Made by a program: the position numbers and the translations under genes
Notes under the pieces: model-generated
The model's database searches: none
What the model saw: the letters and a program-made list of their open reading frames with translations, nothing else
What the model was told of the DNA's origin: nothing
From: Candidatus Bathyarchaeota archaeon
GTDB lineage: Archaea > Thermoproteota > Bathyarchaeia > Bathyarchaeales > Bathycorpusculaceae
NCBI GenBank assembly: GCA_963775465.1
Contig: CAVZIW010000006.1
Location: 224,001 to 288,000 of the forward strand
Direction of reading: 5' to 3'
DNA length: 64,000 nt
In this document: one piece after another, positions 3,876 through 43,000 of the stretch
Position numbering within the stretch: the stretch's first letter is position 1
Layout: every line of letters starts with the position of its first letter

Positions 3876-4163
3876 TCAATGTTTCTCTATTTTTTCTTCT
3901 TTTTTATTTAGTTCAATTTTCATTTTGGACTGTACTTTTTTTCTTTGCTTAAATATTAGATATTCTAGCCAGATGCCTATTATCCCACTGCTGAAAAAGA
4001 CTAGTCCACTGACAGCGGCGGGTAATGCTAGGGGGCGATATGGATAAATAACATTTGAGGCGCTCGTTTGCGTCTTTGAAAAAATAAAGAAAACCGTCAT
4101 TGCAAGGAACATTATGCCTATAATTGAAAAACTGTATCCTAAAAAAGCACGCAGATTTGCCAT
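3876..4163 (-). CDS. small two-TM membrane protein
   Basis: Two hydrophobic segments and a Lys-rich tail. Confidence 0.5.
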   Translation of the reverse strand: MANLRAFLGYSFSIIGIMFLAMTVFFIFSKTQTSASNVIYPYRPLALPAAVSGLVFFSSGIIGIWLEYLIFKQRKKVQSKMKIELNKKEEKIEKH

Positions 4164-4494
4164 TTTTTTTCAGTGCTAGTTTTAAGCAAATCTTACCATA
4201 TAAGGTCTTTTTATTGCTGGTCAGGAAAAGCAATTGTTGTACAGACATCCAAGAAGCAAAAGATAAAATCTGAAATCATATTTATTTTTTCGAAATACTT
4301 ACAGTGTTCGGCTCGCTCCATTTGTCTACGTTGAAGGCACCAATTTTTAGGAGCTTTCTATGTAAAAAAACTCTGAATTATGTCTTATTTTGCTTGCTCA
4401 AAAAATCGAAAAATTGCGACCAATTTTTTCAAGCATTTTGGAAAATTTAGTCAAAAAGAGTGGAGAAATTATTTTGCTACATTTCATGGCAAAT

Positions 4495-4716
4495 CTATTG
4501 ATGGCTGAAAGTGTGGTCGTTTATTTGATCGGATAGAGGTGTTGATTTTGCGTGCATTTGCTTTTCTTCGAGGTCTGGGTGAGGGTTTAAAGCGGCTATA
4601 CATTTAATGTTGTCGAGTTTATTCTGCAATTTTTTGTAGGCTACAAAATAATTTAGAAGTTTTACGGCTTCTTCTTTTTCGAACACTTGCTTTTTTTGAG
4701 GCATTTTATTCACCAT
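4495..4716 (-). CDS. hypothetical protein
   Basis: 73-aa ORF with an upstream TATA-like tract; no motif recognised. Confidence 0.35.
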   Translation of the reverse strand: MVNKMPQKKQVFEKEEAVKLLNYFVAYKKLQNKLDNIKCIAALNPHPDLEEKQMHAKSTPLSDQINDHTFSHQ

Positions 4717-4941
4717 TCGATTGTTTATTAAATGTTACGACATAATTCATTTGTTAATATGCACATGTATATGGCAATAGCAGTTTAGGTTGAGAAAGAG
4801 CTTTCACAATTAAGCCAAGAAGGCAAACGCTCAAGAAAAGACAGAGCAATTTTAATTAAATCTGTAAAATATTACGACTCAATACAGTGAAAAGAAAAAT
4901 AAATAAACCCCATAACCCTTTCGCAATCTTATAAGATCAAG

Positions 4942-5502
4942 GTGAAAAAAATGTCCGCTAAAATTCCAATAAATAATACTTCAGCCTATAGACTTCTTCA
5001 CCCAATGCACACCGTTATAGTTTCATGCATTGGCAACAATAATAAACCAAACATCACAACCATAGCTTGGGCAATGCCAACTTCTATCAACCCCCCGCTA
5101 ATAGCTATCAGCATAGCTCCAGGCAGACATAGTCACAAACTCATTGTAGAGTCAGGTGAATTCATAGTTAACATCCCAACACTTGAGCTTTTGCAAGCAG
5201 TATACGCATGTGGCTCACTCACAGGTAGAAGCTTTGACAAATTCAAAAAAACTAATCTAACACAGATGCCCGGTAAAAAAGTTAAAGTTCCCGCCATCCG
5301 AGAATGCATAGCTCATTTAGAATGCAAAGTTGATGATCAACTCGTTACTGGTGACCACACAATCTTTGTAGGAAAAATCTTAGAAGCCTACGCAGACATG
5401 GGGATCTTCGCTGAAACCTACGACCTCAAAAAAGCACGAATGCTCTATCACGCAGGTGGAAACAACTTCTCGTTGCTAGACCCTAAAAATTATAAACCTT
5501 AA
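4942..5502 (+). CDS. flavin reductase family protein (flavoredoxin-like)
   Basis: PNITTIAW, PPLIAISI, GEFIVNIP and GDHTIFVGKI motifs. Confidence 0.9.
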   Translation: MKKMSAKIPINNTSAYRLLHPMHTVIVSCIGNNNKPNITTIAWAMPTSINPPLIAISIAPGRHSHKLIVESGEFIVNIPTLELLQAVYACGSLTGRSFDKFKKTNLTQMPGKKVKVPAIRECIAHLECKVDDQLVTGDHTIFVGKILEAYADMGIFAETYDLKKARMLYHAGGNNFSLLDPKNYKP

Positions 5503-7089: not shown

Positions 7090-8222
7090 TATTGTCCAAC
7101 TCCTATAGAGTTTCCGACGCCAACAATTATGACTTTGTCGCCTTCTTTGGTGCGTTCCCTTATCATCAATTTAACTTGTTCTATGGCTTTATCGATTGAA
7201 TCATTGATTTCTTTTCGCATGGGTGACACAGCATCGCCAATATCTTGTTTAATGATTATTGCATAATTGCGAATCTTGTATTTAGTTAGTTTTTCTTCAA
7301 TCTTGAATGCGTCCACGCCAGGTCCACCTATGGCTGCACCGATTCCTTCGGCAACTTCACCAACTCCCTCACCTTCAAGCTTTAAGCCTGCGTCAATCAT
7401 TATTAAGCAGGCTATTTTGCCTTCATTTTCTTCAATAGCTGCTTCAACAGCGTCGCCTGGTTTGCCAACGTTTCCGCCAGGACCTTCAGCCTTAATGATT
7501 ATTGCTGTACGTCCTTCTATTGGAACACTTGCCATGACGCAGTCTTTGGCCAGTTTGCGGGTTTCATAACCATGCATGAGTTTTCCTGCAACAAGTGGTC
7601 CTGCTCCATCGCCTATTGGTTGACCATACGCGAAGGCTTTAAGAGCTGATGCATACGCTTCAGCTTCTTTCATTACCATTGGAAGAATCATCTGAAGTTG
7701 CATTATGACATACAAACTCAGAGTTTTTTTACCTTGGATGTAGTAGTGGCGTACAACTTTGTAAATGAAGTTTAACGCCATTGCTGCCTCAAGGGTGTTT
7801 TCTAAGTTGTTAATTTGGACTTCGTCATTTTGGAGTTCGGGCGCCATGAGCTTAACTTCTTCTTTTAGACGCTCGTCTCTAGTATCTAATATATGATCTA
7901 GTTTAGCAACGATTCCAGCGGGATCCATGCTTTGAGGTGCTATAGTGAAGTATTCTAGATAGCGATCAACACGTGTCGAAGGGTCAGTGGTTGGTTTGCC
8001 CAGTTCCTTGATGACATCGATAGCTGTCTTTTTTCCTTCTTCTTTAATATGTCTAAGTTTATGCAGAGAGTTTTCAACTTCACGAATCATTATGTACATT
8101 TGAATGCGTTGACCATAGAAGATGAATCCTATGAAGAATACGTACATAACCAAGCTCAAAACTTGAGTTATTGAATCGGTTCCTGGAATTAAGCTCACTT
8201 TAGTTGCACCACTTTCTTTCAA
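7089..8222 (-). CDS. DUF1512 family protein
   Basis: N-terminal TM, then DPAGIV, PIGDGAGPLVA, IDAGLKLEGE and C-terminal GVGNSIGVGQ. Confidence 0.88.
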   Translation of the reverse strand: MKESGATKVSLIPGTDSITQVLSLVMYVFFIGFIFYGQRIQMYIMIREVENSLHKLRHIKEEGKKTAIDVIKELGKPTTDPSTRVDRYLEYFTIAPQSMDPAGIVAKLDHILDTRDERLKEEVKLMAPELQNDEVQINNLENTLEAAMALNFIYKVVRHYYIQGKKTLSLYVIMQLQMILPMVMKEAEAYASALKAFAYGQPIGDGAGPLVAGKLMHGYETRKLAKDCVMASVPIEGRTAIIIKAEGPGGNVGKPGDAVEAAIEENEGKIACLIMIDAGLKLEGEGVGEVAEGIGAAIGGPGVDAFKIEEKLTKYKIRNYAIIIKQDIGDAVSPMRKEINDSIDKAIEQVKLMIRERTKEGDKVIIVGVGNSIGVGQ

Positions 8223-8294
8223 AAACTATTATAGGACAGTTATAAAGGTATGCCAAATCTCTCAAGGTTTTTCTGCCTTAAAAATAGTTTAAAT

Positions 8295-8414
8295 GCTGCC
8301 AGCTTTCCCAGGTTCACGTGGCCTAAGACCACACTACAGCTGGGAACGGAACACGGTTTAACTTCTGAGTTCGGAATGGGATCAGGTGGAACCCGCGTCC
8401 TATGACCGGCAAAC
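8295..8414 (-). rRNA. rrf: 5S rRNA (stand-alone)
   Basis: Minus strand reads GCCGGTCATAGGACGCGGGTTCCACCTGATCCCATTCCGAACTCAGAAGTTAAACCG...GCTGGCAGC, with the conserved loop C motif and terminal helix pairing; ~120 nt. Confidence 0.95.
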
Positions 8415-8570
8415 ATCCTCTACTGCCCTCCATTCCTTAATATACTTTTAGTTTTTAAGCGGCATTTTTGTTGGAAACGCCAAATTTTGAGCTGATTTAT
8501 GTTTACGCAATTTTCGAATAACTCGTTGACCGCTTAGAACTTACCTAATTTTATAAAATAAAGAGCAGAG

Positions 8571-9842
8571 CTACTTTTTCTTGTTTAGGTCCTCTAAGAA
8601 CTCTTTGGCGCGATCTACTCGGACTTTGCCTTCTTTAACCATTAGATCAGCAACCAAATCGATTTGACCTTCCTTTGCTCCAGCATTAATTGCTATGTTA
8701 CGGGCATGCAAAGACATGTGACCCCTCTGAATGCCTTCACTTGCAAGCGCACGAAGAGCACCCAAATTTTGGGCTAAGCCAACAGAAGCCAAGATTTCAC
8801 CAAACTCATTTGCAGATTTAACATTTAATATTTTCATAGCGATTCGGGCAATGGGATGAGTTTTTACAGCCCCCCCGATTAATCCAACTGCCATAGGCAT
8901 TTCGATCGTGCCTTCCAAGTCGCCATTAACGTTCTTAGACCATTTAGAAATTGAAGTGTATGGTCCGTTCAGAGCTGCGTAAGCATGTGCTCCTGCCTCT
9001 ATTGCTCGATGATCGTTGCCTGTGGCTAAAACCACAGCAACTATCCCATTCATGACACCTTTGTTGTGTGTGGCTGCACGGTATGGATCTGCTGCCGCGA
9101 AAGCTGAAGCATAGGCAATTCCGTCTACAACTGCCTCGCCACCTAGAGCTTCTTTAGGTACAGTACACCAAGCTTTAACTAAACGTTTTGTGGCTAAATT
9201 AGAAATTATTCTAAGGTAAACGTGTCCATTAGTTAATTGTTCAATCATTGGCGCTATGGCTTCTGTCATCGTATTAACCGCATTTGCACCCATTGCATCG
9301 CGACAGTCAACATATAAATGAACAATCAACATTTCCTCCATGGTCGTATCGATAACTCGAGCATCCAAATCCTTCGCTCCACCACCAAACGAGTTGAGGA
9401 CGGGATCTTGATCATTAGCCTTCTTTAGGAGTTCTGATTTTGCGTCTATGACCTGTTCTTTGGCTTGGTTTGCATTTCTAAGTTTGACAACTTGGATTTG
9501 TCCAATCATTACAGGTGTTGTGCTGCTAGTGTGGAATCCTCCACCGTCGCGTACCATTTTTGCAGCGTAGCTTGCCGCTGCTATGACGCTTGGTTCTTCA
9601 GTTGCCATAGGTATTAAGTAATCTTTTCCGTTGATCTGGAAGTTCACACCGATGCCCATTGGTTCTGGAAAAACACCGATGACATTTTCAACCATATGAT
9701 CAGCCAAATCCATCGGGAGTGAACATGATTCTTGCAGTAAATTTGCTTCTTCATCGGTCAAGCCAGCAAAATCTTTCACAATTGCTAAGCGTTCTTTAGG
9801 GGAGAGCTTGTAGAATCCTGAGATTAAAGATGACTTAGCCAT
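8571..9842 (-). CDS. mvaA: HMG-CoA reductase, class II (degradative/MvaA type)
   Basis: ENVIG, PMATEEPSVIAA, DAMGANAVN, THNKG and GIQRGHMSLH motifs. Confidence 0.93.
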   Translation of the reverse strand: MAKSSLISGFYKLSPKERLAIVKDFAGLTDEEANLLQESCSLPMDLADHMVENVIGVFPEPMGIGVNFQINGKDYLIPMATEEPSVIAAASYAAKMVRDGGGFHTSSTTPVMIGQIQVVKLRNANQAKEQVIDAKSELLKKANDQDPVLNSFGGGAKDLDARVIDTTMEEMLIVHLYVDCRDAMGANAVNTMTEAIAPMIEQLTNGHVYLRIISNLATKRLVKAWCTVPKEALGGEAVVDGIAYASAFAAADPYRAATHNKGVMNGIVAVVLATGNDHRAIEAGAHAYAALNGPYTSISKWSKNVNGDLEGTIEMPMAVGLIGGAVKTHPIARIAMKILNVKSANEFGEILASVGLAQNLGALRALASEGIQRGHMSLHARNIAINAGAKEGQIDLVADLMVKEGKVRVDRAKEFLEDLNKKK

Positions 9843-9919
9843 ATTTAGATCACTTCGCAAGTGATTGTTTGATTTTCTACATTTAAACTTTGACTAAACC
9901 CCAACTCAAAACGCTTCAC

Positions 9920-10975
9920 TTATAATGTTGTTTGGCCAAAACACCTGGGCATAGAAACTGCAGAAACACCCAAACGCTTCCTGATCTCCATCGCTAAGGC
10001 ATCACCATTACTCCGGTAGTTATCGGTAATTACCTGCTTAGCCTTGGAACGCTTAACGTATTCAATTAAACCATCAAAATCCGAATGATCACTGAGCGCT
10101 ACTAAATGTTCGCGATCCCCAATTTGTCTACAAGGCGAATGGAATTCCCAGCCGCTAACACAGATTCGCGCATTGCGCAGACCAACATATTGACGCTGAT
10201 TCATATGATAGAAGGCAACACAAGGCAAGTTACCGTCTAAAAGCTCATGCCCTTCACTATCTGTAGAAAGCGACAAACAACCCATCCGCATACCATGCTT
10301 CTCACACACTTTGGTTACTTCAAAAACACGCTCCGGCATCACAAACGGGACTTCGACATCCGCATTGCGGAGAATTTGCATGATTTCCTGCAGTTTCCCA
10401 TGATACCCAAAAACGTAAACTGTTCCCCCCCTCAAACGCTTTTCGACCATCGAAACTAAAAGTTCTCGCACATCGACTTTGAAGTTGCGACGACACGATG
10501 GGCTACCATATGTAGCTTCAACCACCAACACATCACAATCAACAACAGGCGTTCCTTCAAGTCTAAAATCACCAGTCCACGCAATTCGAATTCCGCCTGC
10601 ATCCTCCACCAAAACTTGACAGGCTCCTAAAATGTGATCAGCTTTGAGAAGACTGATTTTTTCGTCACCGAACTCGAGGACTTTTCCGTATTCTAAGGTT
10701 TTAACGGTTTGGGTCATTTTCAATTTCAATGATCCATTGAGTGTATCGGCAAGGTCACGGGTGGCTTTGGTCATCAAAACCTTTTCGCAACTCTTCAAAC
10801 TGCTACGGAGACCGTAGAGGTGGTCAGCATGTGCATGGGTTACCACTCGCAAGGGTCTAGAAGAATCATGGGCATCACAGGAGACACTGTCACCTAACAA
10901 AACAGCGCCTTTCTTAGTTACTACAGCCCTTTCAGCCAAGTTTCTTCCTCTTAAACGGTTTTCTCTGCAAGCCAC
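9920..10975 (-). CDS. metallo-beta-lactamase-fold nuclease (beta-CASP-like)
   Basis: THAHADH, HILGA, TGDF, EATYG and SDHSDF motifs; true start probably ~10939. Confidence 0.88.
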   Translation of the reverse strand: MACRENRLRGRNLAERAVVTKKGAVLLGDSVSCDAHDSSRPLRVVTHAHADHLYGLRSSLKSCEKVLMTKATRDLADTLNGSLKLKMTQTVKTLEYGKVLEFGDEKISLLKADHILGACQVLVEDAGGIRIAWTGDFRLEGTPVVDCDVLVVEATYGSPSCRRNFKVDVRELLVSMVEKRLRGGTVYVFGYHGKLQEIMQILRNADVEVPFVMPERVFEVTKVCEKHGMRMGCLSLSTDSEGHELLDGNLPCVAFYHMNQRQYVGLRNARICVSGWEFHSPCRQIGDREHLVALSDHSDFDGLIEYVKRSKAKQVITDNYRSNGDALAMEIRKRLGVSAVSMPRCFGQTTL

Positions 10976-11352
10976 TCTACTAGCCGCTGCGGTTGGTCAG
11001 TTTCAATAGTGAATATAATAGGTCCAAGTGGGGATTCAGCGTTTTCTTCACAAAAAGAAACATGCCCCGCAAATGCAACTTGCTTGTTTAAACAAAACAA
11101 GATTTTGTTGCCTCGGGCGGACCTAAAAAGTACTTTTCTTGCAGCATCGCGGATGCGATCATTTCTTAATAAAGTTCGCAATTTAATCAATGCATCATGT
11201 CCTTCCGCCTTAGCAACTAACTTGTTGCTTTTCTGAGCAGGTTCAATGCTTATAGTTGAGTTACCCAAAACATTGTTTACAGCAAATTTAACTTTAGATT
11301 CATCTTCCGTTGGGTTTATCTCCGTTTCAACATAGACAATTACTTGTTCCAT
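10951..11352 (-). CDS. UPF0201 RNA-binding protein
   Basis: INPTEDESKV, IRDAAR, LNKQVAFAG and SPLGPI motifs. Confidence 0.88.
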   Translation of the reverse strand: MEQVIVYVETEINPTEDESKVKFAVNNVLGNSTISIEPAQKSNKLVAKAEGHDALIKLRTLLRNDRIRDAARKVLFRSARGNKILFCLNKQVAFAGHVSFCEENAESPLGPIIFTIETDQPQRLVEWLAEKTV

Positions 11353-11906
11353 TTTTTTTCAATCCTTCCAAGTGACTCTCTAATCTTGACCTTAGCTTGC
11401 TCGACACTACGATCGTTAATTACCATTTGCTCCGCCAATGCTATGACATTTCCTAAACCTACGCCCAGTTCTCGCATATCCCGATCATTAAAGATTTGCC
11501 ATTTAGATGTATCGTCGCTTCGACCCCTTCTGGCAAGTCGTAGAAACCGCGTCTCTGGCGAAGAGTGAATCGCGATCAAACTAAATTTTTGGAAATTCTG
11601 ATTGAAAATATCTGCTTCATTGAGACTACGCAATCCATCAACTAGAACTTTAGGGTTTGACATTTCTTGTATTTTAGGGACACAACGGTGAGCAATCACG
11701 TAATTGCCACTTTCTTGCCGCAATTCAAGCATGACCTTTCCTACGTTTTCCGGAGTCAACTCTAAGTCACGTTTTATTGTTTCTTCCCTAATAACATCGC
11801 CCATTACAACTATGCCGTAACCGAGTTCTCGCGCAATATCAACAACTAATGATTTTCCAGAACCAGGCATCCCAGCTAAACCAGCCACTAGTTTTTCAGC
11901 GTTCAC
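11340..11906 (-). CDS. UPF0200 P-loop kinase (dephospho-CoA/nucleotide kinase-like)
   Basis: GMPGSGKS Walker A, MGDVIREE, VDGLRS and RGRSDD motifs. Confidence 0.88.
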   Translation of the reverse strand: MNAEKLVAGLAGMPGSGKSLVVDIARELGYGIVVMGDVIREETIKRDLELTPENVGKVMLELRQESGNYVIAHRCVPKIQEMSNPKVLVDGLRSLNEADIFNQNFQKFSLIAIHSSPETRFLRLARRGRSDDTSKWQIFNDRDMRELGVGLGNVIALAEQMVINDRSVEQAKVKIRESLGRIEKKWNK

Positions 11907-31618: not shown

Positions 31619-33373
31619 TCACCTCCTTTGTTCTTCTTCTAGTTTCTTTTTGAAGAAGTTATAGGGAATCACATCTGGAGAAAGACCAATAAAATCAAGT
31701 ACACTGGCCTGAGGACCAAGTGCCTGATTTTGAAAGCTGTTTTTCATGTGATTGAATGATTGTTGTCCAGAGTTTTCTAAAATTGCATGAGCATAAATCG
31801 AGGGGACAGTTTTTTCCAGGTTATTCTTGTTTTTGTATGCCTCTTCGATCCAATCGATTATGGTTTGCCCTTGTAACCGTAGAATGCTACTTCTCATATC
31901 AATTTGCGCCCGCGTTTCTTGCGTAAAGTTGGCAATAGTTGCTTCGTCATGTTTTCCTTTAGATACGAAATCGTAGATTGTGCTTAGCCAGTGGTATGTA
32001 TCGAGATTGGTTTGTTTTATAAAATTCTTAACTTCGCTGCGTAAGGTTTCAGAAAGTAAGTCGGGGTAGAAACGTCTTAGAAGTTGGAAGTAGAAATCCA
32101 CTTGCATGTTGAAGTAATGCAACCCATAGTCGCTGAAATTGCGGTCAAAGAAGGCGTAGTTTGCTATCTGATGGAATAATTCGCATTTTGGGTCCGTTAA
32201 GCGATAGTCGAAGCCGAAATAACTTCCTAAAAGGCGGTTTTCAGCTTTTAGTTTGGCTTCTAAGCCGGTGCCTGCATAGGCTTCTGCACGGCAAAAGTTA
32301 AATGGGTTATCAAGGTGTCTTTCCATGAATCGGATATTTAGCAAAATGTCTTCCATTGAGGCGTCGGGTTCAAACATCAAGAAGTTGTAGGCTACATGGA
32401 TGTCAAAGTCGTTGAGTACCGTAAGGGCATTGAGTGTCTGCTCGATCGTTTGTATGCGATTTAAGTTTTTTAGGCCATTTGCTGAGGCATTTTCCACTCC
32501 TAAGAAGACTCTGAATAGTCCTAATTCGTCAAGTATTTTGATGGATTCGCGGTTTATGCTTTCAGGTCTAGCTTTGATGGCAATAGCGATTCCTTCTATT
32601 TTCTCTTGCTTTAACTGATCACGCAAAAGTCTGAAACGTTTAACTGTTTGTTGCTGGTTGGGAAGGAAGAAATTGTCGTCTTGAAAATTAAAAATTCGAA
32701 TGCCATGCTCAAAATAGAGTTGCTTCATCTCTGCAACTATGTTGTCGACGCTACGATAACGGAACTTCTTACCTCCACCTTGTTCATACCAAGCGTTGAT
32801 GCTGCAAAAGGCGCAGTTTCGCCAGCAACCACGGCTGCTTAGAATGCTGCTGATTTTTTTTCCAAAGTATTCGTGGAAATGCTCTCGTTTGGGGAAAGGT
32901 AAAGAATCCAAGTCCTCCTTATTGCTGCTGGCTGGATTACAAGTAATTTTGCCGTCTGTGTTTCGGTAGCATAAAGCTGAGACAAGAGAGAGGTGGTTGA
33001 GGTTTTTTGCAAGTGAAACCATTAGGTCTTCGCCTTCACCTAGTGCAACTGAGTTTATGGATGGATATTCGATGAGTAGCTGTTCGCTGTTGAAAGATGC
33101 AAAATGTCCTCCAGCAACTATATGCCCCTTATAACCTGCATCTCGAAGGCCTTGTGCTATGTTGAGAAACTCCCTGGCACGGCTGGTAAATACCATGGAT
33201 AAACCTACAATTTGAGGATTAAAGTTGAGGATGTCTTGAATTACTTTTGGCTGGTCGTAGTTTGAGTTGAAGGGAATTATTTGGGCGTGTTGCTTTTTAG
33301 CTTCAAGTGAGGAGGCTATGTAGCGTAGCCCCAGATTTTCTTCTAGTTCGGCTCCTACAAGTGCTATTTTCAT
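31619..33373 (-). CDS. cobalamin-dependent radical SAM enzyme (class B methylase-like)
   Basis: B12-binding domain (NLGLRYIASSL, VGLS, AGGHFAS, GEGE), SRGCWRNCAFC, FQDDNF and LGVEN; start moved to MKIALVG after a GGGAG SD. Confidence 0.92.
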   Translation of the reverse strand: MKIALVGAELEENLGLRYIASSLEAKKQHAQIIPFNSNYDQPKVIQDILNFNPQIVGLSMVFTSRAREFLNIAQGLRDAGYKGHIVAGGHFASFNSEQLLIEYPSINSVALGEGEDLMVSLAKNLNHLSLVSALCYRNTDGKITCNPASSNKEDLDSLPFPKREHFHEYFGKKISSILSSRGCWRNCAFCSINAWYEQGGGKKFRYRSVDNIVAEMKQLYFEHGIRIFNFQDDNFFLPNQQQTVKRFRLLRDQLKQEKIEGIAIAIKARPESINRESIKILDELGLFRVFLGVENASANGLKNLNRIQTIEQTLNALTVLNDFDIHVAYNFLMFEPDASMEDILLNIRFMERHLDNPFNFCRAEAYAGTGLEAKLKAENRLLGSYFGFDYRLTDPKCELFHQIANYAFFDRNFSDYGLHYFNMQVDFYFQLLRRFYPDLLSETLRSEVKNFIKQTNLDTYHWLSTIYDFVSKGKHDEATIANFTQETRAQIDMRSSILRLQGQTIIDWIEEAYKNKNNLEKTVPSIYAHAILENSGQQSFNHMKNSFQNQALGPQASVLDFIGLSPDVIPYNFFKKKLEEEQRR

Positions 33374-33771
33374 TTTCTTAACTCCCATAAATTCGAAAGC
33401 AGGTATCTGCCTTCTACTGACATATTTCTTGCTTCTCAAAGTTTAATGCAAGATATAGGTAACTTCAACTCACGAATCATATTTAATAATATGTGACTGT
33501 AAGGAGACTATGACAGAATTATGTTAGCATCACACAACCCCTACTCTCTCCGTTGAAATCAGCTTTTGATTAATGCTTCATCAAAAAAATGAATAAGTGA
33601 TAAGGCGTATTTTTTCACTCATTAATTATTTGTTTTGGAAGACCAACTTAAGCAGACAATCAAAGCAAAAGTCTCAGTTAAGTAAACGAAAAAACTGTAG
33701 GTTCAAAAGTAGAAATAGGAATGGAGGATAAACCTCTCACGTTTACATTTTGAGTGGCTATTAAGTGGCTA

Positions 33772-35769
33772 TTAAGGTGTTAAGGCGAAGGCTATTGTGC
33801 GTGAAGCATCGTACTGGCTTTGACGTGAAATTCCGTTGATTGCTCGCGCAGCTACGTACAGCTGAACTGCAAACGCAGCGCTTGGGCATATTCCCAGCAG
33901 GTTGGCAACGGTTTCTTTGTAGATGAAAGGGGCAAGTGAGACTGACCCTGAAGTGCTGGAGATGACGTTTGGTCCTTTGATGATTCCGAAGGAGTAGTTA
34001 GCCATGAGAGTTGGATGAGAAGCAACATAGAATATATGGACAAAATCGGTTTTATTGTTGAATTTAAGCATTCCACATTGGTTCGCGGCTACACCTGCTA
34101 CTGTTGGCATGTCAATTGAAGCAATACATTTGTTGTTGTCGACTAGAACTTTTAGAGATTGAGTATGCAAGACAACGCCAGCTGCGTTAGTAAAGTCAAT
34201 TTTTAATGTGTGCAAGCCATTAGTTAAAGATGAACTATCTAATATCATGCCTAGGTCAGTGTTCATGAAAAAGTCACCCAGCTGATGGATAGCAAAATAC
34301 CCCGATTGAGCATTTATAATGTTAGGAACAAAATGAATTGGAATTTCATATTTGCCATTAATGGTGTTGAGCTTTAGGTCCCACCAAGTATCAAATCGCA
34401 AGGCACCATCCACAAACACTCGATAGTAACGCACCCCACTCTGCCAAGATAATAGTTGATTGATTTGCAGTGACAGAACTCCGCCGAATGGGACATTCTT
34501 GGCGAATTGGTATGGGTACAATGGCTGAGTTGTTGTGTCAACTTTCCCTGCGGCGGTAACCAGATTCCATGGAATCAGCCCTATTCCTTTGAACAGCCCT
34601 GAAGTGACGAATCCGCCTAGAATATTGATAAGGTCAATTTCCTGATCAGAGCACACCAATATACGCATAGCATCAATGCAGGCGACGCTTGACGGGCGGA
34701 CTCCTACGCTGTCGGTCAGATGCCGAACACTACCGGGGTGAGGAACAGTATCCACTAAAGTTATGTGGTTTGCAGGATCACGTTCAGGCAAGATAATCGT
34801 AGTTTGAGCAGAATCAAGCCATGTGAGGAAAAACGGATTAGTCAATCCTGAAGCAATTGCCATTGGAACTCCACCTTGTAGTGAATACCTTGTTATGCGT
34901 CCGCCACCTGACTGCTCGCTTATGTAAGCATAGGCGAGATCCGAAGATACCAACAATCCAACCGCATTGTTCAAACTGTTTATAAGAACGGTTTTTTGTA
35001 GAGTATTCAAGTCTACTCTTATGAGTCGACCTGGATTTGCGTATTCAACAACGTAAGCTTGATGATGATTCTCATCAAGGAATATTTGCTGAGGTGCCAG
35101 AAACCCTGAGGTTAGCACGACAGCTGCCGATCGGTTGGCATTTGTAAGGTTCACTTTGAGCAAGTTTCCTGTTCGTTCTGTTACGTAGGCGGTCTTCTCG
35201 TCGCTGCTAACCGCGATGTCTTCTGGGTTAGTATAACCTGTTCCAATTATGTGATAAGGACTTGCAAGTTTGTAGGTAACCCACTCAATTGTCATATCGT
35301 ATCCATATTGAGCAACCCGGATTTTTGCGACGTTTCCATCTTTTGTCTGAACTGCAAAAACGTCGTTGTTTACAAGCTGATTTGAAGCGTCATTGTTGCC
35401 GATGATTGAAGTATTACCGTATGTTAAGGCTTGAAGTGCAACAGGGGTCAAAGCGGCAAAATCAATGTTTCCTAAATTCATTATACTAGCTCCGCCTGCC
35501 GGAACCATTTGTCTCTTTATACTATCAATCTGTTCCCACCAAATATCTCCAGGACCATTCAAGTTCCCGCTTAATGTCCCTGTCTCACAGTCAAACACCC
35601 ATGTTCCTTTAAGCACGGTTGTTCCTGAAGACAAAACTGAGCTAGAACGAATCAAATCCAAGAAACTAATAGTACCTTTAGAATATTCCACAAAAACTAG
35701 TTGATTCCGTTTAGAAAGAAAACGGCACCCAATAGCGGCACCTACTCCACCTAATAATTTAGTTGTCAA
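33772..35769 (-). CDS. large beta-propeller protein with inserted beta domain and C-terminal Ig-like region
   Basis: Blade repeats GYTNPEDIAVSSDEKTAYVTE, GFLAPQQIFLD..AYVVE, SLNNAVGLLVS..AYISE and GLTNPFFLTW; LTNGLHTLKIDF; no clear signal peptide. Confidence 0.78.
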   Translation of the reverse strand: MTTKLLGGVGAAIGCRFLSKRNQLVFVEYSKGTISFLDLIRSSSVLSSGTTVLKGTWVFDCETGTLSGNLNGPGDIWWEQIDSIKRQMVPAGGASIMNLGNIDFAALTPVALQALTYGNTSIIGNNDASNQLVNNDVFAVQTKDGNVAKIRVAQYGYDMTIEWVTYKLASPYHIIGTGYTNPEDIAVSSDEKTAYVTERTGNLLKVNLTNANRSAAVVLTSGFLAPQQIFLDENHHQAYVVEYANPGRLIRVDLNTLQKTVLINSLNNAVGLLVSSDLAYAYISEQSGGGRITRYSLQGGVPMAIASGLTNPFFLTWLDSAQTTIILPERDPANHITLVDTVPHPGSVRHLTDSVGVRPSSVACIDAMRILVCSDQEIDLINILGGFVTSGLFKGIGLIPWNLVTAAGKVDTTTQPLYPYQFAKNVPFGGVLSLQINQLLSWQSGVRYYRVFVDGALRFDTWWDLKLNTINGKYEIPIHFVPNIINAQSGYFAIHQLGDFFMNTDLGMILDSSSLTNGLHTLKIDFTNAAGVVLHTQSLKVLVDNNKCIASIDMPTVAGVAANQCGMLKFNNKTDFVHIFYVASHPTLMANYSFGIIKGPNVISSTSGSVSLAPFIYKETVANLLGICPSAAFAVQLYVAARAINGISRQSQYDASRTIAFALTP

Positions 35770-35867: not shown

Positions 35868-36128
35868 TTAAAGTTCGCTTTCATTTAACGGTTCAGATTT
35901 GCGTTTAAAATCTAAAGGTAGATCCCGACAAAGTTCTTTTAATACTTCTTTAGCCAAGGCGTCTTCAAGTTCCTCTCCTGCAAGCAGGATTTGATGTTTC
36001 GAAACGTTGCTTTTCTTTATTTGCCTAATGTGAAGATTAACGTGATAGTCAATTGCTTTCGTCATCGCTTTTAGATCAGGAACTAAGAGAATCCTTTCTT
36101 TGCATTTTGGACAAACTATTTCAAGCAT
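35868..36128 (-). CDS. small C2H2-like Zn-finger protein
   Basis: CPKC...ILLVPDLKAM..AIDYHVNLH. Confidence 0.65.
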   Translation of the reverse strand: MLEIVCPKCKERILLVPDLKAMTKAIDYHVNLHIRQIKKSNVSKHQILLAGEELEDALAKEVLKELCRDLPLDFKRKSEPLNESEL

Positions 36129-36227: not shown

Positions 36228-36578
36228 ATGACTCTAATTACCTCTAATAATGAACAGGGGAAAATTTCTTATACTGTACCGCTTGATTATACCTTCAACC
36301 AGTTGAAAAAAATGCAACATTCAAAACTCATCAGCTACATCGATATGCTCAAAGTTTTGTTTAATACTGGTCCATTGAATAAGAATCAGTTGATTTTTGA
36401 GACAAAGCTAAAGGAAGATGAGTTAAGCGAAAAAATTGACTTACTCTTAAAGTTACAGTTGATAAAGAACAAGGTTAATAGAAAAAACGAAATACTCTTT
36501 TCTATTTCCCAAAAAGGGATTAGCGCTCTAACGTTTTTCAAAGATGTGAATCTGCTTATTCATTATAATAAAGAATAA
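36228..36578 (+). CDS. winged-helix DNA-binding protein
   Basis: YIDMLKVL..GPLNKNQLIFETKL...LLKLQLI...FSISQKGISAL; true start may be further downstream. Confidence 0.72.
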   Translation: MTLITSNNEQGKISYTVPLDYTFNQLKKMQHSKLISYIDMLKVLFNTGPLNKNQLIFETKLKEDELSEKIDLLLKLQLIKNKVNRKNEILFSISQKGISALTFFKDVNLLIHYNKE

Positions 36579-37136
36579 GAACTCCATCTAAAAACAATTC
36601 ACAGCCTAAATTTCTAGTTTGCCGCAGGTATTTCATATAGTTTAATATCAAATTGTTAGCTTAAAAGTGGACGGAGTTCGTCGTTTAACCAGGCAAAAAC
36701 AGATTGTATTTGAGGAAAGAACGGCGATCTTTCTAACGTGAGGACTAAACGGCGAAATCCGCATCACAAAATAAAGTTCAATCAATCCTTTAAACAGTTG
36801 TTGGCACTAGCACACAGCAACAAAAAGTGATGGCTTTTCTTGCAAACAAACTTGATATTTTCATTGAAGCTATTTTCTAATTGTTGCTTATCCTTGAGGA
36901 TTTTCAAAGAAAAAATATGATAACAGGCAAACCAATCGAAAACTGCATTTGTCATAACTGAAATTGCTTTAAGAACCTTTGGGAAAACTTTTAATAATTT
37001 GAGGGTTTTGGAAGTCATGGTGGTTTCTTTTCCGCTTTCTAACTTTAGCAACAAGCAACTTAAGAAAAATCATGGTTCTCTTTTGAATGCAAAGGCGACA
37101 ATTGAGCATAAACATCGAGAAAGGTCTGATCAATTA

Positions 37137-38483
37137 ATGTTTTCTCCGTTCGTTTACATATTTAACATAAATGACGATACGAAGTGTCTTTTCCATTCTT
37201 TGACGTTAAAGAAAGCATACCTAAAAAATGATGAATATATCACTGTATTAACTGATATGGCTACGGATAACCTTACCGAATCTGTAAAGAGCTTACTTAA
37301 TCTCGAATTTATTGTACCCCAAAGCTTTGATCAAGAGAGAGTTTTTTGCACATTGGCAGATAAAATGCTTAGAAAGACGCCATCTCCATTTCTATCCTAC
37401 GTTTTAGTAACGGATTACTGCAACTTTAGATGCGGCTATTGCTTCATAGAGCACTCTCTTAAAGGACCGAGCGTAAAAATGTCTAAGGAGGTAGCCGACA
37501 AAGTCATAAATGCTCTTATTACAACAGCAAAAGAAGTTAAAGAATACAAAGTTACATTTTACGGAGGTGAACCTCTTAGTAATAGCGAAATCATCTTTTA
37601 TATAATCGAAAAGCTTGAGAGGGAAGTCAAGAATAAGTTTACCTTTTCATGCGTAACGAATGGAAGCTTTGTAACAAAGGAATTAGCGAAAAAACTTAAA
37701 GAAAACAATGTTAGCGTTGGTTTATCTCTTGATGGTTGGCATGGAATTAATAGGAATCGTGTTTTTACTGAAGGAATCGAAACCTTCAATTCTACACTCC
37801 GAGCGCTAACTCTCTTGAATGAAGCTAGCGTAAATGTGGGAATATCCTGCACGATTACCAAGCAGAACTACGAATATGCGGAGGAAATAGTCGATTTCTT
37901 TCACAAATTGGGAATTAAGAGTTTAGGTTTTAACTTGCTCACCAGAATCAAGGACTCTACTCAATTCGAAGTGCCAGATCCAAAACAACTTGCTCATCAT
38001 CTCTTTAAGGCGTACTTAAAAGCAAAAGAATTGCATATGTTTGAAGATCGGATAGACAAGCGAAGGGCGAGATATTTCTTTAGAGAAATTTTCCACGTAT
38101 ATGATTGCCCGGCATTTGGTCAGCAAATATTCTTTTCTCCATCCGGAACAGTTGGACCTTGCCAAGCCTTCTACCCGTCGGGAAAATATCAAATTCCAAT
38201 TAAAGATGATTTAAAAGTTCAAGAAGAACCTCTTTTTTATAAATGGTTTGAATTGGGGACTCTAAAGAACAAAGAATGTATGAATTGCCCTGCGCTTGGA
38301 ATATGCGGTGGTGCATGCACATATGATGTCTATATTAAAACTGGTCAATTAGGCATAAAAGAAGACTATTTCTGTGCGTTTCAAAATGAAATTTTGAAAT
38401 TGTTATTGGCGTATGATTTTCTAACAAAATCACAAAATAGTTCCAAAAGAAAGAATCGGAAGCGAATACAACGCAAACTCTAA
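37137..38483 (+). CDS. radical SAM/SPASM peptide maturase with putative N-terminal RRE
   Basis: CNFRCGYC, FYGGEPL, VTNGS and SLDG; SPASM cysteines CPAFG...GPC...CMNCPALGICGGAC...YFC; start moved to MFSPF. Confidence 0.92.
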   Translation: MFSPFVYIFNINDDTKCLFHSLTLKKAYLKNDEYITVLTDMATDNLTESVKSLLNLEFIVPQSFDQERVFCTLADKMLRKTPSPFLSYVLVTDYCNFRCGYCFIEHSLKGPSVKMSKEVADKVINALITTAKEVKEYKVTFYGGEPLSNSEIIFYIIEKLEREVKNKFTFSCVTNGSFVTKELAKKLKENNVSVGLSLDGWHGINRNRVFTEGIETFNSTLRALTLLNEASVNVGISCTITKQNYEYAEEIVDFFHKLGIKSLGFNLLTRIKDSTQFEVPDPKQLAHHLFKAYLKAKELHMFEDRIDKRRARYFFREIFHVYDCPAFGQQIFFSPSGTVGPCQAFYPSGKYQIPIKDDLKVQEEPLFYKWFELGTLKNKECMNCPALGICGGACTYDVYIKTGQLGIKEDYFCAFQNEILKLLLAYDFLTKSQNSSKRKNRKRIQRKL

Positions 38484-38672
38484 CAATGCCTTCTCTAATA
38501 TTTTGCTTCTGTAATTTGTTTTGAGTGATTTCGATAAAGAGCGCTTACGTTAGCATCAGTAAAGTTATTCATAGAAGCCAATTGCAGGGTCGGCAGCCTT
38601 ATTTCTGGAGCGGGTTGTTTTAACAATAAATATAAATAACTGACATTTCATAGGTCATATTAGTGATTATTT

Positions 38673-39254
38673 TTGGCAAAAGTTAAAAAAGCTCCTAAAG
38701 CAAAATTAAAAAGACCAGCTGTTTCTCGTTCAACAAAAAAATCGGTCTCAAAAGTTTCTGCTAAAAAACTCACTGAAGCGCAAAGTAAACGTTTTCGGGT
38801 GCTTCTTTCGAGGAGTCCGTCAATTGAAAAGATTGATCCTCAAATGTATGCAAAACTGCAATCAGCCATACATGAAGCCGTTGAAAAAACGATGCCAGAA
38901 TATGTGGAATGGTTAAATCAAGCTTTCGGCGAGACTATTGTAGCAGAAGATTGCCCTCAACCAGCATGTTGGTCGTGTGGTACAGGTCCTGAACCGGCGT
39001 GTTGGTCGTGTGGTACAGGTCCCACTCCAGTTTGTGATAAGTGTGATAATGGTGACTTTACTTCGTCAATTGATAAGATCGCAAACAAGGTTTCTAAAGC
39101 GGTTATCAATGCTGCCATGAGTGCCGCGATAGGTCTTACTTTAGCTGATGCTGTTGCAAAAGAGAGTGGAATAATAGTTAGCGAGGTCCAAATGCGCAAT
39201 ATAGTTAAGAAACAACTCAAAGAAGTAGCCAATGAAATAGGAAAAGGCGCATAG
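38673..39254 (+). CDS. Cys-rich repeat protein, putative SPASM substrate/precursor
   Basis: Central CPQPACWSCGTGPEPACWSCGTGPTPVCDKCDNG flanked by helical regions, with a Lys-rich N-terminus. Confidence 0.78.
   Translation: MAKVKKAPKAKLKRPAVSRSTKKSVSKVSAKKLTEAQSKRFRVLLSRSPSIEKIDPQMYAKLQSAIHEAVEKTMPEYVEWLNQAFGETIVAEDCPQPACWSCGTGPEPACWSCGTGPTPVCDKCDNGDFTSSIDKIANKVSKAVINAAMSAAIGLTLADAVAKESGIIVSEVQMRNIVKKQLKEVANEIGKGA
38961..39026 (+). repeat. 33-bp tandem repeat encoding PACWSCGTGPx
   Basis: CCAGCATGTTGGTCGTGTGGTACAGGTCCTGAA followed by CCGGCGTGTTGGTCGTGTGGTACAGGTCCCACT. Confidence 0.9.
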
Positions 39255-39432
39255 TGCTGCTTAGAGTCAGGCAAGGCCTTTTCCCTTACCCAAATTCCGA
39301 GAATTTTATCTTTGCCCTCTTCAAAACAATAACTACGGTTACTGCTATGGTTATGGCTACGGTTCATGCTGGGCAAGATAAACACCCAGTTCTTTCTTTC
39401 TAAATACTTTTTAGCGCGCGCTTAGAAGTCAA

Positions 39433-39981: not shown

Positions 39982-41142
39982 TCATTCAGTCGCTGCTGAT
40001 CCGCCTTGCCATTGAGATATACGAAATATAACAAACTCAGCCGGCTTCACCGGAGCAACACCGATCAACATTATTAATCTTCCATTATCTATATCATCTT
40101 GCGTCATTGTGTTGCGATCGCATTTCACGAAGAAAGCTTGTTCCGGAGTTGTTCCCATCAGAGCGCCGCCTTTCCATACAGTTGTCAAAAATTGTGATGC
40201 AGCCTGCTTTACCCTTGCCCAAAGTCTCTCATTATTAGGTTCAAAAACAACCCATTGGGTTCCCTCTTCAATCGATTCCTCAAGGTACAAAAACAAACGC
40301 CGAAGGTTGATGTATTTCCAAACGGGGTCATTTGAAGTTGTTCGAGCGCCCCACACACGGAAACCTCGACCACTAAATTCTCGCAAACAGTTTACCCCAA
40401 GAGGATTTAGCATTTCTTGTTGCGCTCGGGAGATTTGCTGTTCTGGACCGAGAACCCCTTCTATGACTTCATTGACTGGCGCTTTGTGAACCCCGCGTTG
40501 CAAGTCGGCTCGTGCATAGATCCCGCATATGTGTCCGCTGGGCGGGATACACAAAATTTCTTCTGTATCAGGATGTCGGATTTTTATCCAGGGATAATAT
40601 AGTGCAGCATACGATGAGTTGTACAAAGACCGCTGCTTCCGAATCACGTCCAGATTCGCACATTTTTTTGAGTCAAGCACGGCAAAGCGATTCTTCAGGT
40701 TTTCACAATGCTCAATCATAGCATTATGAATTTTCTGGGTTGTTCCATTGGGAATTGCTAAGATTTTGATTTCGTCGATTCCATTAAACGCCCAAAGCCC
40801 AGTTCTCTGACTTGGTTCTCTGGAGTCTTTGCCTATAATAGTTTCATCGATAACCACGCCTTCTGTAGCTGAAACACGATTTATGTAGACTCTGTGACCA
40901 CCGTTCTGAAAAAAGCCTTCGACAGCATGAGGCAGATAACGGTAATCACCATAACTTGTGTCCAAATAACCACCGAATAACCTTTGAAATTCGGAGAAGC
41001 TCGTAACAAGTGTGGGTTGGTTGAGCGGCCCTTTCTGAGTTAAACCCACCATGCCTGTTGTACTGGTGCTCACGCCTTCGATAGGTTTTGCACCTATTTC
41101 TACTTCTTCAATGTAAACTTTGGGTGATAAATATTCTGGAAT
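39982..41142 (-). CDS. contractile tail sheath protein (eCIS Afp2/3/4-like)
   Basis: (I)PEYLSPKVYIEE N-terminus, FFQNGG, AALYYPW, PPSGHICG, RGVHKAP, VWGART, WVVFEPN and APVKPAEFVIFRI. Confidence 0.93.
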   Translation of the reverse strand: MPEYLSPKVYIEEVEIGAKPIEGVSTSTTGMVGLTQKGPLNQPTLVTSFSEFQRLFGGYLDTSYGDYRYLPHAVEGFFQNGGHRVYINRVSATEGVVIDETIIGKDSREPSQRTGLWAFNGIDEIKILAIPNGTTQKIHNAMIEHCENLKNRFAVLDSKKCANLDVIRKQRSLYNSSYAALYYPWIKIRHPDTEEILCIPPSGHICGIYARADLQRGVHKAPVNEVIEGVLGPEQQISRAQQEMLNPLGVNCLREFSGRGFRVWGARTTSNDPVWKYINLRRLFLYLEESIEEGTQWVVFEPNNERLWARVKQAASQFLTTVWKGGALMGTTPEQAFFVKCDRNTMTQDDIDNGRLIMLIGVAPVKPAEFVIFRISQWQGGSAATE

Positions 41143-41296: not shown

Positions 41297-41809
41297 ATGC
41301 CGGAGTTTAGTGTTAATGCAACTCGTTTTGATCCATACAAGAATTTTAAATTCAGAATTAAGTGGGATGGCAAATATGTCGCTGGTTTGAGCAAAATGTC
41401 AGCTTTAAAACGAACCACTGAGGTAGTTAAACATCGATCAGGTGGAGATCCAAGTTCAAGCAGAAAGTCTCCAGGTCGAACTGAATATGAGGCAATCAGG
41501 TTAGAACGTGGAGTCACTCATGATTTGGAGTTTGAAAACTGGGCTAACAAGGTATGGAACTTTGGTGCTGTATTGGGCGGTGAAGTTTCCCTTAAGGATT
41601 TTCGCAAGGACATAATAATTGAAATCTATAATGAAGCAGGACAAATGGCAATAGCTTACAAAATTTATCGTTGTTGGGTTTCAGAATACCAAGCACTGCC
41701 AGAGTTAGATGCTAACTCAAACGCTATTGCTATTCAGAGTATAAAGTTGGAAAATGAGGGTTGGGAAAGAGACACCGATGTCACTGAGCCAACTGAGCCT
41801 TCAATTTAG
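41297..41809 (+). CDS. contractile tail tube protein (T4 gp19/Afp1-5-like)
   Basis: RFDPYKNFKFR, RKSPGRTEYEAIRLERGVT, FRKDIIIE and LDANSNAIAIQSIKLENEGW motifs. Confidence 0.93.
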   Translation: MPEFSVNATRFDPYKNFKFRIKWDGKYVAGLSKMSALKRTTEVVKHRSGGDPSSSRKSPGRTEYEAIRLERGVTHDLEFENWANKVWNFGAVLGGEVSLKDFRKDIIIEIYNEAGQMAIAYKIYRCWVSEYQALPELDANSNAIAIQSIKLENEGWERDTDVTEPTEPSI

Positions 41810-41845: not shown

Positions 41846-43000
41846 TTGGCTCCACTAATTTCAAGCCGATCCAAAACTGTTAAAGGAGCGTTAGTTTTAG
41901 TCAGATCTGCTTCAAAGTCTTCTGTTAGCGATCTTGATCCTCTTAGCTTTATTTTTCAATACAATCCTGAGATGCTTACTCACACGTTTTCCTCTTCAGA
42001 CTGCGAAGAAGTAGAAAGGCAGGAAAAAGGGCAGAGTGCTGCAAGCAAAATCGTTGAATTAATAAACTTGAACTTAGAACTCGATGCAACCGATCCGCTT
42101 ATACAACCAAATCTGCACCAAGAAATTGTTGAATACGGCCTTCATCCAAGCCTTGCCATTCTGGAATCAATCCTGCTCTCTCAAAACTCCACATCATCTA
42201 TCGTTCTCTTTACGTGGGGTCCCAATCGGTCAATTCCTGTTTCAGTAGAAAACATGAGAATTTTAGAGGAGGTTTTTGATACCAAGTTAAACCCAATTCG
42301 GGTAAAGATTGAACTTGCTATGAGAGTACTTGATATCTCGAAATTTAGAAAAGGTTCAAAGGGTTACACTCTTTGTCTACTTCACTCAGATCGAAGAAAT
42401 TTCTTCATAAAAAAACGTGTCGACAGAAGTCCACTCAATGTGTCATTTGCGACAAAAATTGTTCCTCAACATAGCTGGAAAGATTTAGTTATGCCTATTG
42501 ATAAGAAAGAACAAATACGCAAAATATGCAATTACGCAAAGAATAACCCTAAAACTTTTGAAACTTGGGGCTTTGATAAACATTCTCGACGAAAGGGGTT
42601 CAACATTCTGTTTTTAAATCCATCTGAGTCTGGAAAAACTATGGTTGCTGAAGTCATCGCCAGTGAAATTAAACTTGATTTGTTCAAGATTGATCTTTCG
42701 AGGGTTGTCAGTAAGTATATTGGGGAGACAGAGAAGAATCTGAATAGAATTTTTAAAGATGCAGAAGATTCTGATGCGGTTCTGTTTTTCGACGAAGCAG
42801 ATGCTTTATTTGGGAAAAGAAGTGAAGTAAAAGATGCCCATGACAGGTACTCCAATATTGAAGTCAACTATTTGCTACAGAAAATAGAAGAACACCCAGG
42901 AATCGTTATTCTCGCCACTAATACCAGCGGGAAAGTTGAGGAAGCATTCGTGAGACGGATGAATTTCATTGTAGAGTTTCCATCTCCAAATGGAAATTAA
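41846..43000 (+). CDS. fusion of eCIS tube-initiator-like domain and Afp15-like AAA+ ATPase (degenerate Walker A, truncated)
   Basis: N-terminal FQYNPEMLT...LELDATD...LFTWGPNRSIPV...EEVFDTKLNPIR. C-terminal WKDLVMP, NPSESGKT, VVSKYIGETEKNL, FFDEADALFGKRSEVKDAHDRY and RRMNFIVEFP, then a stop. Confidence 0.8.
   Translation: MAPLISSRSKTVKGALVLVRSASKSSVSDLDPLSFIFQYNPEMLTHTFSSSDCEEVERQEKGQSAASKIVELINLNLELDATDPLIQPNLHQEIVEYGLHPSLAILESILLSQNSTSSIVLFTWGPNRSIPVSVENMRILEEVFDTKLNPIRVKIELAMRVLDISKFRKGSKGYTLCLLHSDRRNFFIKKRVDRSPLNVSFATKIVPQHSWKDLVMPIDKKEQIRKICNYAKNNPKTFETWGFDKHSRRKGFNILFLNPSESGKTMVAEVIASEIKLDLFKIDLSRVVSKYIGETEKNLNRIFKDAEDSDAVLFFDEADALFGKRSEVKDAHDRYSNIEVNYLLQKIEEHPGIVILATNTSGKVEEAFVRRMNFIVEFPSPNGN

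Follow-up and report, generated by a model that had tools for sequence, protein, structure and literature searches.

The closest described counterpart of the locus reported here is CrpC of Methanococcus voltae. This enzyme combines a recognition element for ribosomally synthesized peptides with post-translational modifications (RiPP recognition element, RRE) with a radical S-adenosylmethionine (SAM) domain and a SPASM domain with seven Cys, and it forms thioethers of the ranthionine type on the Cys-repeat protein CrpA, as described in the 2026 report (PMC13692751). According to the same text, the N-terminal 47 residues of CrpA recur in CrpB, processing relies in part on contacts of the N-terminal domain, and no protease is known for the system. 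We analysed a stretch of 64,000 nucleotides, hereafter the window, from Candidatus Bathyarchaeota archaeon (assembly GCA_963775465.1, contig CAVZIW010000006.1, positions 224,001 to 288,000 of the forward strand). The window carries a compact cassette in which a radical SAM/SPASM maturase gene is followed by a gene for a Cys-rich protein of 193 residues, the putative precursor. The two products are very probably enzyme and substrate. By analogy, the cassette is most likely a variant of a type of enzyme, described only recently, that staples Cys-rich archaeal proteins with thioether bridges.

The published text on CrpABC allows several parallels to be drawn. Like CrpC and CrpA, the system is archaeal, and its enzyme unites an RRE, a radical SAM domain and a seven-Cys SPASM domain with almost identical ligand spacing. 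Like CrpA, the substrate exceeds 100 residues and has a tandem Cys motif that includes C-x-x-Q/D, a pattern present in the family and lacking in the window's own units. As in CrpABC, a second protein of the cluster carries the N-terminal region of the substrate, and no protease is known. In contrast, the maturase falls outside the CrpC family TIGR04463 (109.1 bits vs a cut-off of 525). Whereas CrpA carries ten C-terminal repeats of 17 residues, the precursors considered here present one to five internal units of 10-12 residues flanked by helices, and the partner sharing their sequence is a methyltransferase that bears the entire scaffold except for the loop. The substrate is unrelated to CrpA by sequence, with no CrpA-like match in either of our homologue searches. 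Finally, the host is a member of the Bathyarchaeota rather than a methanogen, and the system is known here from sequence and models. The elements of the cassette, in window coordinates, are as follows.

36893..39328, + strand: two-gene cassette block, the only stretch in common with the 95%-identical relative L023
36999..38483, + strand: RRE-radical SAM/SPASM maturase gene, from the open reading frame (ORF), Pfam and AlphaFold2 (AF2)
37134..37367, + strand: N-terminal RRE-like domain, residues 40-117 of the 488-residue form, from AF2 and superposition
37419..37442, + strand: CX3CX2C motif of the maturase, from a regular expression on the translation; invariant in a 65-sequence alignment
38106..38375, + strand: SPASM Cys set, seven Cys for two auxiliary clusters (C324, C342, C381, C384, C390, C394, C413)
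38673..39254, + strand: gene for the 193-residue putative substrate (precursor), an ORF of an orphan family with no Pfam or NCBIfam family
38673..38774, + strand: disordered N-terminal tail rich in Lys/Arg, residues 1-34 (13 Lys/Arg, no acidic residues, isoelectric point 12)
38775..38927, + strand: conserved helical leader-like domain, residues 35-85, from alignments and AF2 (pLDDT, the predicted score of the local distance difference test, 73-76)
38952..39044, + strand: Cys block, residues 94-124, two 11-residue units with the core C-W-S-C-G-T-G-P plus a diverged third
38955..39022, + strand: 33-bp tandem DNA repeat under both units (2.1 copies, 91% matches)
39057..39242, + strand: C-terminal helical follower domain, residues 129-190, from alignments and AF2

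The association of the two genes was apparent at several levels of comparison. Alignment by blastn of the relative L023 (14.5 kb) with the window returned a single block, 2,440 bp long and 94.75% identical, between unrelated flanks. Maturase and precursor therefore travel as one unit, because L023 shares this block and nothing on either side of it. Scanning one genome per species yielded 28 related loci in 19 assemblies; these loci overlap the genus genomes surveyed below and are close kin, so that the counts are not independent. The precursor gene lies directly downstream of the maturase in 24 of the 28 loci, and the other four are orphan precursors, all in assemblies with a full cluster elsewhere. 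The original prediction was to fall if the Cys-rich gene proved non-syntenic in other genomes, and it stands on this point. Most loci are titled Candidatus Bathyarchaeota archaeon, and one 10-kb contig carries an Acidobacteria label. Within the genus, the maturase was detected at 63% identity or more in 10 of 60 other genomes, and all 10 possess the precursor family. When 24 genus genomes were probed for both genes, the same five carried both and 19 carried neither, two of these 19 showing only unrelated matches of 25-28%; five further genus genomes with the maturase all had the precursor family. In a sample of 400 other genomes from the phylum, in each of which four candidates were scored, no copy of the maturase was found at E<=1e-50. 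Judged from these distributions, the pairing of the maturase with the Cys-rich gene is not due to chance.

A maximum-likelihood tree placed the family maturases in one clade (support 100/100). The window and L023 formed a sub-clade (100/99) outside the 16 full-cluster enzymes (100/99), with L024 between them; the outgroups are long-branched, and deeper placements are unsafe. The sole sister-clade locus recovered, L052 on a metagenome contig, encodes in the region 3816-5377 a 45%-identical enzyme and, directly upstream of it, a 66-residue ORF that has seven Cys within 20 residues and does not resemble the leader of the precursor family. The sister-clade enzymes P0084, P0085 and P0089 are fused to a GNAT acetyltransferase domain.

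The maturase ORF opens at TTG 36999 and encloses the 448-residue reading from ATG 37137. Both genes lie where the original prediction had placed them, and it is the maturase start that needs correction. The start is most likely ATG 37017, upstream of 37137, which gives 488 residues, because the 96%-identical database protein P0029 has 488 residues and the relatives show a similar basic N-terminal extension. A TATA-like A/T-rich stretch is located at 36989-36998, before the start. The CX3CX2C motif occupies residues 95-102 (448-residue numbering, also used for the SPASM Cys), and the SPASM pattern reads C324-x12-G-x4-C342, C381-x2-C384-x5-C390-x3-C394, C413. This agrees with the pattern of the radical SAM/SPASM subgroup, C-x9-15-G-x4-C ... 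C-x2-C-x5-C-x3-C ... C. All ten Cys are invariant in an alignment of 65 homologues down to 27% identity, which bears out the earlier claim of an intact radical SAM motif and a full SPASM set. Searches against Pfam returned only Radical_SAM (PF04055, 8.4e-22) and Fer4_12 (2.5e-10), with no match to PqqD at E<=0.01.

The AF2 model of the maturase, built from 65 sequences, has a mean pLDDT of 89 and a predicted template modelling score (pTM) of 0.87. Residues 40-117 of the 488-residue form are predicted as four short strands and three helices (pLDDT 94-98). By sequence, the nearest solved structures are CteB (1.3e-23), TigE (6.8e-20) and the anaerobic sulfatase-maturating enzyme, anSME (2.3e-16). 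Superposition with VIA-align on CteB gave Z 34.2 and a root-mean-square deviation of 3.5 over 405 aligned residues (model residues 43-471 on chain residues 1-450) and takes in the N-terminal domain of CteB. TigE was aligned over model residues 36-473 (Z 29.7). The alignments to anSME (Z 31.3 over 339 residues) and ChlB (Z 31.4) start only at model residues 123/124 and 119/120, respectively, and the Foldseek ranking is in line with these superpositions. CteB (PDB 5WGG/5WHY), a thioether-forming ranthipeptide maturase that acts on Cys-rich substrates, is thus the best match among solved structures, RRE included. The predicted topology and the CteB superposition support an N-terminal RRE fold, with a three-stranded sheet and three helices, as had been suspected from the letters of the N-terminal segment.

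Assignment to a family was approached with NCBIfam, in which 83 families matched the maturase at E<=0.01; cut-offs were compared for the 25 listed. The best match, FibroRumin (TIGR04136), spans residues 2-403 and so aligns the N-terminal domain, yet it reaches 179.5 bits against a cut-off of 400, and the maturase is not a member. PapB (NF047865), like CteB a ranthipeptide maturase with Cys-rich substrates, came second with 142.8 bits against 340. Further scores were 118 of 600 for CefB, 94.2 of 425 for SCIFF (TIGR03974) and 94.9 of 453 for QhpD (TIGR03906), the last of which leaves the QhpD/QhpC system below its cut-off as well. The cyclophane maturase models were likewise below their cut-offs (AmcB 109.5/425, YhhB 97.5/445, GrrM 95.8/310 and FxsB 65.4/370). 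The top matches are all RiPP maturases for Cys-rich or repeat peptides, and several of them align from residue 2. Although it resembles CteB in fold, the maturase differs from CteB and PapB in scoring far under the cut-offs, and its substrate, with a leader of about 90 residues and a follower, is unlike a short SCIFF-type peptide. These results support a radical SAM/SPASM enzyme that bears an RRE and belongs with the RiPP maturases. The maturase shares the radical SAM/SPASM core fold of anSME, but it is not an anSME, because the corresponding model (TIGR03942) scores 102.2 bits against a cut-off of 349.45, an RRE is present and the extra Cys-bearing insertion of anSME is missing in the phmmer alignment, which leaves seven SPASM Cys. 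The earlier account had named kinship with sulfatase maturases as a finding that would overturn it, and the evidence points the other way.

Relatives of the 193-residue protein are few. A word-indexed search of 5.8 billion clusters found eight, and 20 proteins at E<=0.001 came from a full profile search with HMMER over 1.84 billion representatives. Searches with the protein gave no Pfam or NCBIfam family (the sole NCBIfam row, at 0.0086, is at chance level), nothing under E 0.14 in a profile search against PDB sequences, no usable match in the ESM Atlas and no longer homologue at E<=0.01 among 1,156 candidates. In alignments, the precursor family divides into a tail rich in Lys, a helical region of strong conservation in which A-K-L, P, Y and W positions are invariant, the Cys block and, behind it, a conserved helix. 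The motif invariant across the family in the leader-like domain lies around D-P-x-x-Y-A-K-L-Q and P-E-Y-x-x-W. In the follower, the first helix is conserved family-wide, and the part beyond about residue 165 occurs in a long-form subgroup only. AF2 predicts helices at 35-85 and 129-190, and a loop at 86-128 with pLDDT of about 40-44.

The protein has exactly seven Cys, at positions 94, 99, 102, 110, 113, 121 and 124, which make up a single block of 31 residues with two near-identical 11-residue units and a diverged third, just as initially described. On the evidence of the DNA, the two units are a duplication and not a chance resemblance, because they are underlain by the 33-bp tandem repeat. 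With predicted helices and conserved sequence on either side, the block is internal and not C-terminal, in accordance with the first reading. The dismissal of heme c sites also holds: there is no CxxCH, and the single His is residue 67, outside the block. A complex prediction with the full maturase and the full 193-residue protein, run without controls, gave no answer (score 0.01, mark 0.32) and is evidence neither way.

We surveyed the variation of the Cys units in 46 unique precursors (from the loci and from database matches), which contain 117 CxxC units. The number of units ranges from one to five per precursor and is most commonly two, so that the variation in repeat number anticipated among homologues is indeed present. 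The common unit has 12 residues with three Cys, in the form P-x-x-x-C-S-S-C-G-N-D-C, and some variants, such as P0012 and P0024, have CxC pairs. At the third residue past the second Cys, 95 of the 117 units (81%) have D, Q or E, and 13 have Gly. The CrpA report calls a C-x-x-Q/D pattern suggestive of radical-SAM thioether formation (PMC13692751). The second position of the unit is Ser in 88 units, Trp in seven and Tyr in two, and Trp is limited to the near relatives of the window. The conserved aromatic residue per repeat of triceptide and cyclophane systems is therefore not a property of this family, and the proposal of Trp-x-Cys links finds no support in it. Canonical cores finish in a conserved P-T-P. 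Overall, the family shows the general features of RiPP precursors: a conserved recognition region, a variable core and a maturase-adjacent gene, often in several copies.

Most relatives have a larger cluster than the window. All-against-all clustering of the ORFs of the 28 loci and the window produced only three families that exceed six loci, all of them families of the cluster itself, and none of the recurrent families was a peptidase or a transporter. In 20 loci out of 28 the precursor is followed by a B12-binding radical SAM protein of 529 residues, for which HpnJ, the RiPP C-methyltransferase TIGR03975 and ApyD are the best models, none of them reaching its cut-off. A class I methyltransferase of 367 residues is present in 22 loci. 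Its first 120 residues or so align with the leader and the follower of the precursor, with the Cys block missing, and this fused protein was found only through the genome and profile searches. Some clusters have a second precursor. The cluster methyltransferase was not found in the genome of the window. The cassette in the window is thus a minimal form of two genes, in which the C-terminal follower is longer. In several clusters (L029, L035, L041, L044, L047, L048 and others) the maturase, the B12 enzyme or the methyltransferase is split over frames, which could reflect long-read sequencing errors in metagenome-assembled genomes or decaying copies. Lys-rich N-terminal tails with the wording M-S/P-K-N/K-K are common to maturase, precursor and methyltransferase (37017-37130 and 38673-38774 in the window; L009-L017 elsewhere) and could be a shared signal or an effect of codon use or translation start.

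The interpretation that we favor, to which we assign an even chance when the chemistry and the fate of the product are included, is a self-contained maturase-substrate cassette that would introduce thioether crosslinks on an internal loop of a product that stays scaffolded. What we infer here are the thioether chemistry, the binding by the RRE, and what the product does and what becomes of it. The RRE would dock on the conserved helical leader-like region of the 193-residue protein. Chemistry of the 5'-deoxyadenosyl radical, together with the two auxiliary clusters, would then convert the Cys thiols of the loop into intramolecular thioether crosslinks. The links would most likely be non-alpha (of the ranthionine type), directed to a residue a few positions downstream, with at least one per unit. 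As for CrpA, the product would probably remain a scaffolded protein with a stapled loop between its N- and C-terminal helices, and release as a short peptide seems less likely. In most relatives the scaffold may be tailored further by the B12-radical SAM enzyme and the class I methyltransferase. A more elaborate version, which we regard as rather doubtful, is that the substrate, instead of being a usual precursor of leader, core and follower, is a small helical scaffold that displays an expandable Cys loop to the maturase, that the loop-less scaffold fused to the methyltransferase acts as a docking module, and that the product is a stapled-loop protein, possibly metal- or redox-active, that is confined to one Bathyarchaeota genus. 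Enzymes would then be recruited through a shared leader domain, in that the methyltransferase would compete for or join the RRE, or its scaffold would pair with that of the substrate.

Several observations weigh against the stapled-loop interpretation. All three units of the window have Gly at the third position past the second Cys, without D, Q or E, and the acceptor there is unclear. None of the 25 NCBIfam families compared reaches its curated cut-off with the maturase, and the fold scores do not separate CteB (34.2) from ChlB (31.4), anSME (31.3) and TigE (29.7). We also extracted the residues at the catalytic-site proximity positions of CteB, F112, F152, T186, S210, H363 and Q364, as given in PMC10288494, from alignments to solved structures. 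The maturase has F-Y-V-S-Q-A where CteB has F-F-T-S-H-Q, with two of six identical and one similar. The corresponding residues are F-F-V-S-K-G in TigE, F-Q-Q-S-D-F in anSME and F-L-T-S-I-A in SuiB; since TigE and SuiB each share three of six with the maturase, it is no closer to CteB, and the comparison discriminates nothing. The AF2 model of the 193-residue protein, with a mean pLDDT of 61 and a pTM of 0.31, is usable for secondary structure only. One metatranscriptome run contains a single contig of 265 nt over 38692-38956, with one mismatch and ending where the repeat begins, which faintly suggests transcription of the precursor; this is one contig, and the RNA library may hold DNA. The maturase gene is covered by no RNA contig, a gap in the contigs that carries no meaning of its own. 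Finally, the surroundings of the clusters show no recurrent protease, exporter or immunity gene, which fits a retained protein and does not point to a function.

The same body of evidence bears on the other explanations. In a classical RiPP pathway, with the same enzyme-substrate pair and the same Cys-directed chemistry, a housekeeping or distant protease would strip the leader of about 90 residues and the follower and free a crosslinked peptide of about 35 residues, active outside the scaffold. A conserved leader, a variable core and extra precursor copies are the usual RiPP layout, the P-T-P that closes canonical cores could mark a boundary, and the combination of a long leader with a methyltransferase and a B12-radical SAM enzyme as tailoring partners presumably recalls proteusin-type clusters. 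However, the 28 loci and the window show no recurrent family of peptidases or transporters, and the conserved follower helix together with the loop-less scaffold, which recurs as a folded N-terminal domain of the methyltransferase, speaks for a structural domain and against a leader that is discarded. The product in the CrpA precedent is a protein as well, and we consider release of a peptide unlikely.

Alternatively, the maturase might carry out a different radical reaction on the loop, such as the formation of alpha-carbon thioethers (sactionine), Cys oxidation of the sulfatase-maturase type, C-C crosslinks or, in the window variant only, an aromatic crosslink to Trp. SPASM enzymes with other chemistries have near-equal fold scores: TigE reportedly catalyses a cyclopropanation, anSME forms formylglycine and SuiB performs C-C coupling. 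The maturase lies below every curated cut-off compared, its proximity profile matches none of the characterised enzymes compared, and the window units combine Trp with the lack of a D/Q/E acceptor. Against this, Cys and Pro are the sole residues kept across all core variants, and with Trp in so few units an aromatic crosslink cannot be the chemistry of the family. The cyclophane models also score under PapB (AmcB 109.5, YhhB 97.5 and GrrM 95.8 vs 142.8), and a seven-Cys SPASM set without the extra Cys of anSME equals the ligand count of CrpC. We therefore judge a different reaction to be quite unlikely. It is also conceivable that the 193-residue protein is an unmodified Cys-rich protein that binds Zn, Fe or Cu, and that the maturase has another substrate or a regulatory or assembly link to it. 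CxxC pairs between turns rich in Pro and Gly look like metal-binding loops, Cys alone is strictly conserved in the core, and the authors of the CrpA study suspect a metal-related role for their product (PMC13692751). Strict adjacency to and co-occurrence with an RRE-bearing maturase, the movement of the two genes as one block and the lack of the maturase at E<=1e-50 in the 400 genomes of the phylum sample, by which it tracks the narrow range of the precursor, make this explanation very improbable. Metal binding and crosslinking are, moreover, not exclusive.

DNA near-identical to the window was found in contigs from soil, wetland and salt-marsh runs of several studies; the best-matching run spans the entire stretch and may be the source sample. 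Upstream of the cassette, on the opposite strand and at a distance of 1.2-5.4 kb, the region 31619-35769 encodes a B12-binding radical SAM protein of 606 residues and a protein of 665 residues with weak beta-propeller-like matches only. We considered the former (31619-33439) as the B12 enzyme of the cluster and found no support for this assignment, as its identity to the canonical enzyme is only 25%; a 52%-identical relative of it lies about 6 kb from the cluster in L050. Closer to the cassette are genes for a zinc-ribbon-like protein of 86 residues (35868-36128, - strand) and a winged-helix protein of 116 residues (36228-36578, + strand), which may be regulators. In L024, L025, L044 and L046, relatives of the zinc-ribbon-like protein lie no more than a few kb from the cluster. 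This family was grouped in four loci with the window copy outside the grouping, and L046 matches the window copy directly. Relatives of the winged-helix protein occur at similar distances in L027, L039 and L044.

Directly downstream of the cassette are three genes of a contractile injection system: a small sheath protein of 363 residues on the - strand (39982-41073), a T4 gp19-like tube protein (41297-41809) and a protein that joins a weak CIS_tube match to an AAA ATPase (41846-43000). The next gene encodes a PMT-type glycosyltransferase, and the set looks incomplete. A link between these genes and the cassette was rejected: the sheath, tube and AAA proteins have matches in none of the 28 loci at E<=1e-5, and L023 diverges from the window before them. 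In L023, the region just past the cassette (8034-11413) contains a 70-residue ORF with a Cys-rich C-terminus followed by two radical SAM ORFs of 330 residues, an arrangement that resembles another RiPP-like set, distinct from the first. A search for repeats flanking the cassette gave only short matches, probably due to chance.

The enzyme class, Cys-repeat substrates and, since 2026, thioether stapling of archaeal proteins are already known. The description of the locus as an undescribed archaeal RiPP holds for the substrate family, which is an orphan, and no longer for the kind of system, as CrpC/CrpA has been published as an archaeal RRE-radical SAM/SPASM thioether system (PMC13692751). What is new is the orphan substrate family, whose Cys loop is expandable and lies internally between conserved helices, the reuse of the substrate scaffold as the N-terminal domain of a methyltransferase, and a distinct maturase clade restricted to part of one Bathyarchaeota genus. 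Our literature search found nothing on radical SAM RiPPs of Bathyarchaeota, although the supplementary datasets of PMC13692751 and PMC10288494 might list the family; the main text of the archaeal RiPP survey PMC12144867 mentions neither Bathyarchaeota nor SPASM nor radical SAM.

Radical-SAM stapling of whole proteins in archaea is so far represented by one case, CrpC/CrpA. If our interpretation is true, the cassette would constitute a second, unrelated substrate family in a different, uncultured archaeal lineage. Its compact two-gene form of 2.4 kb should be easy to express, and the family offers a natural range of repeat numbers and unit sequences. The units of the window, which lack the usual D, Q or E, would provide a simple test of acceptor choice, and the fusion of the scaffold to the methyltransferase in the sister clusters would offer a natural way into the recruitment of tailoring enzymes.

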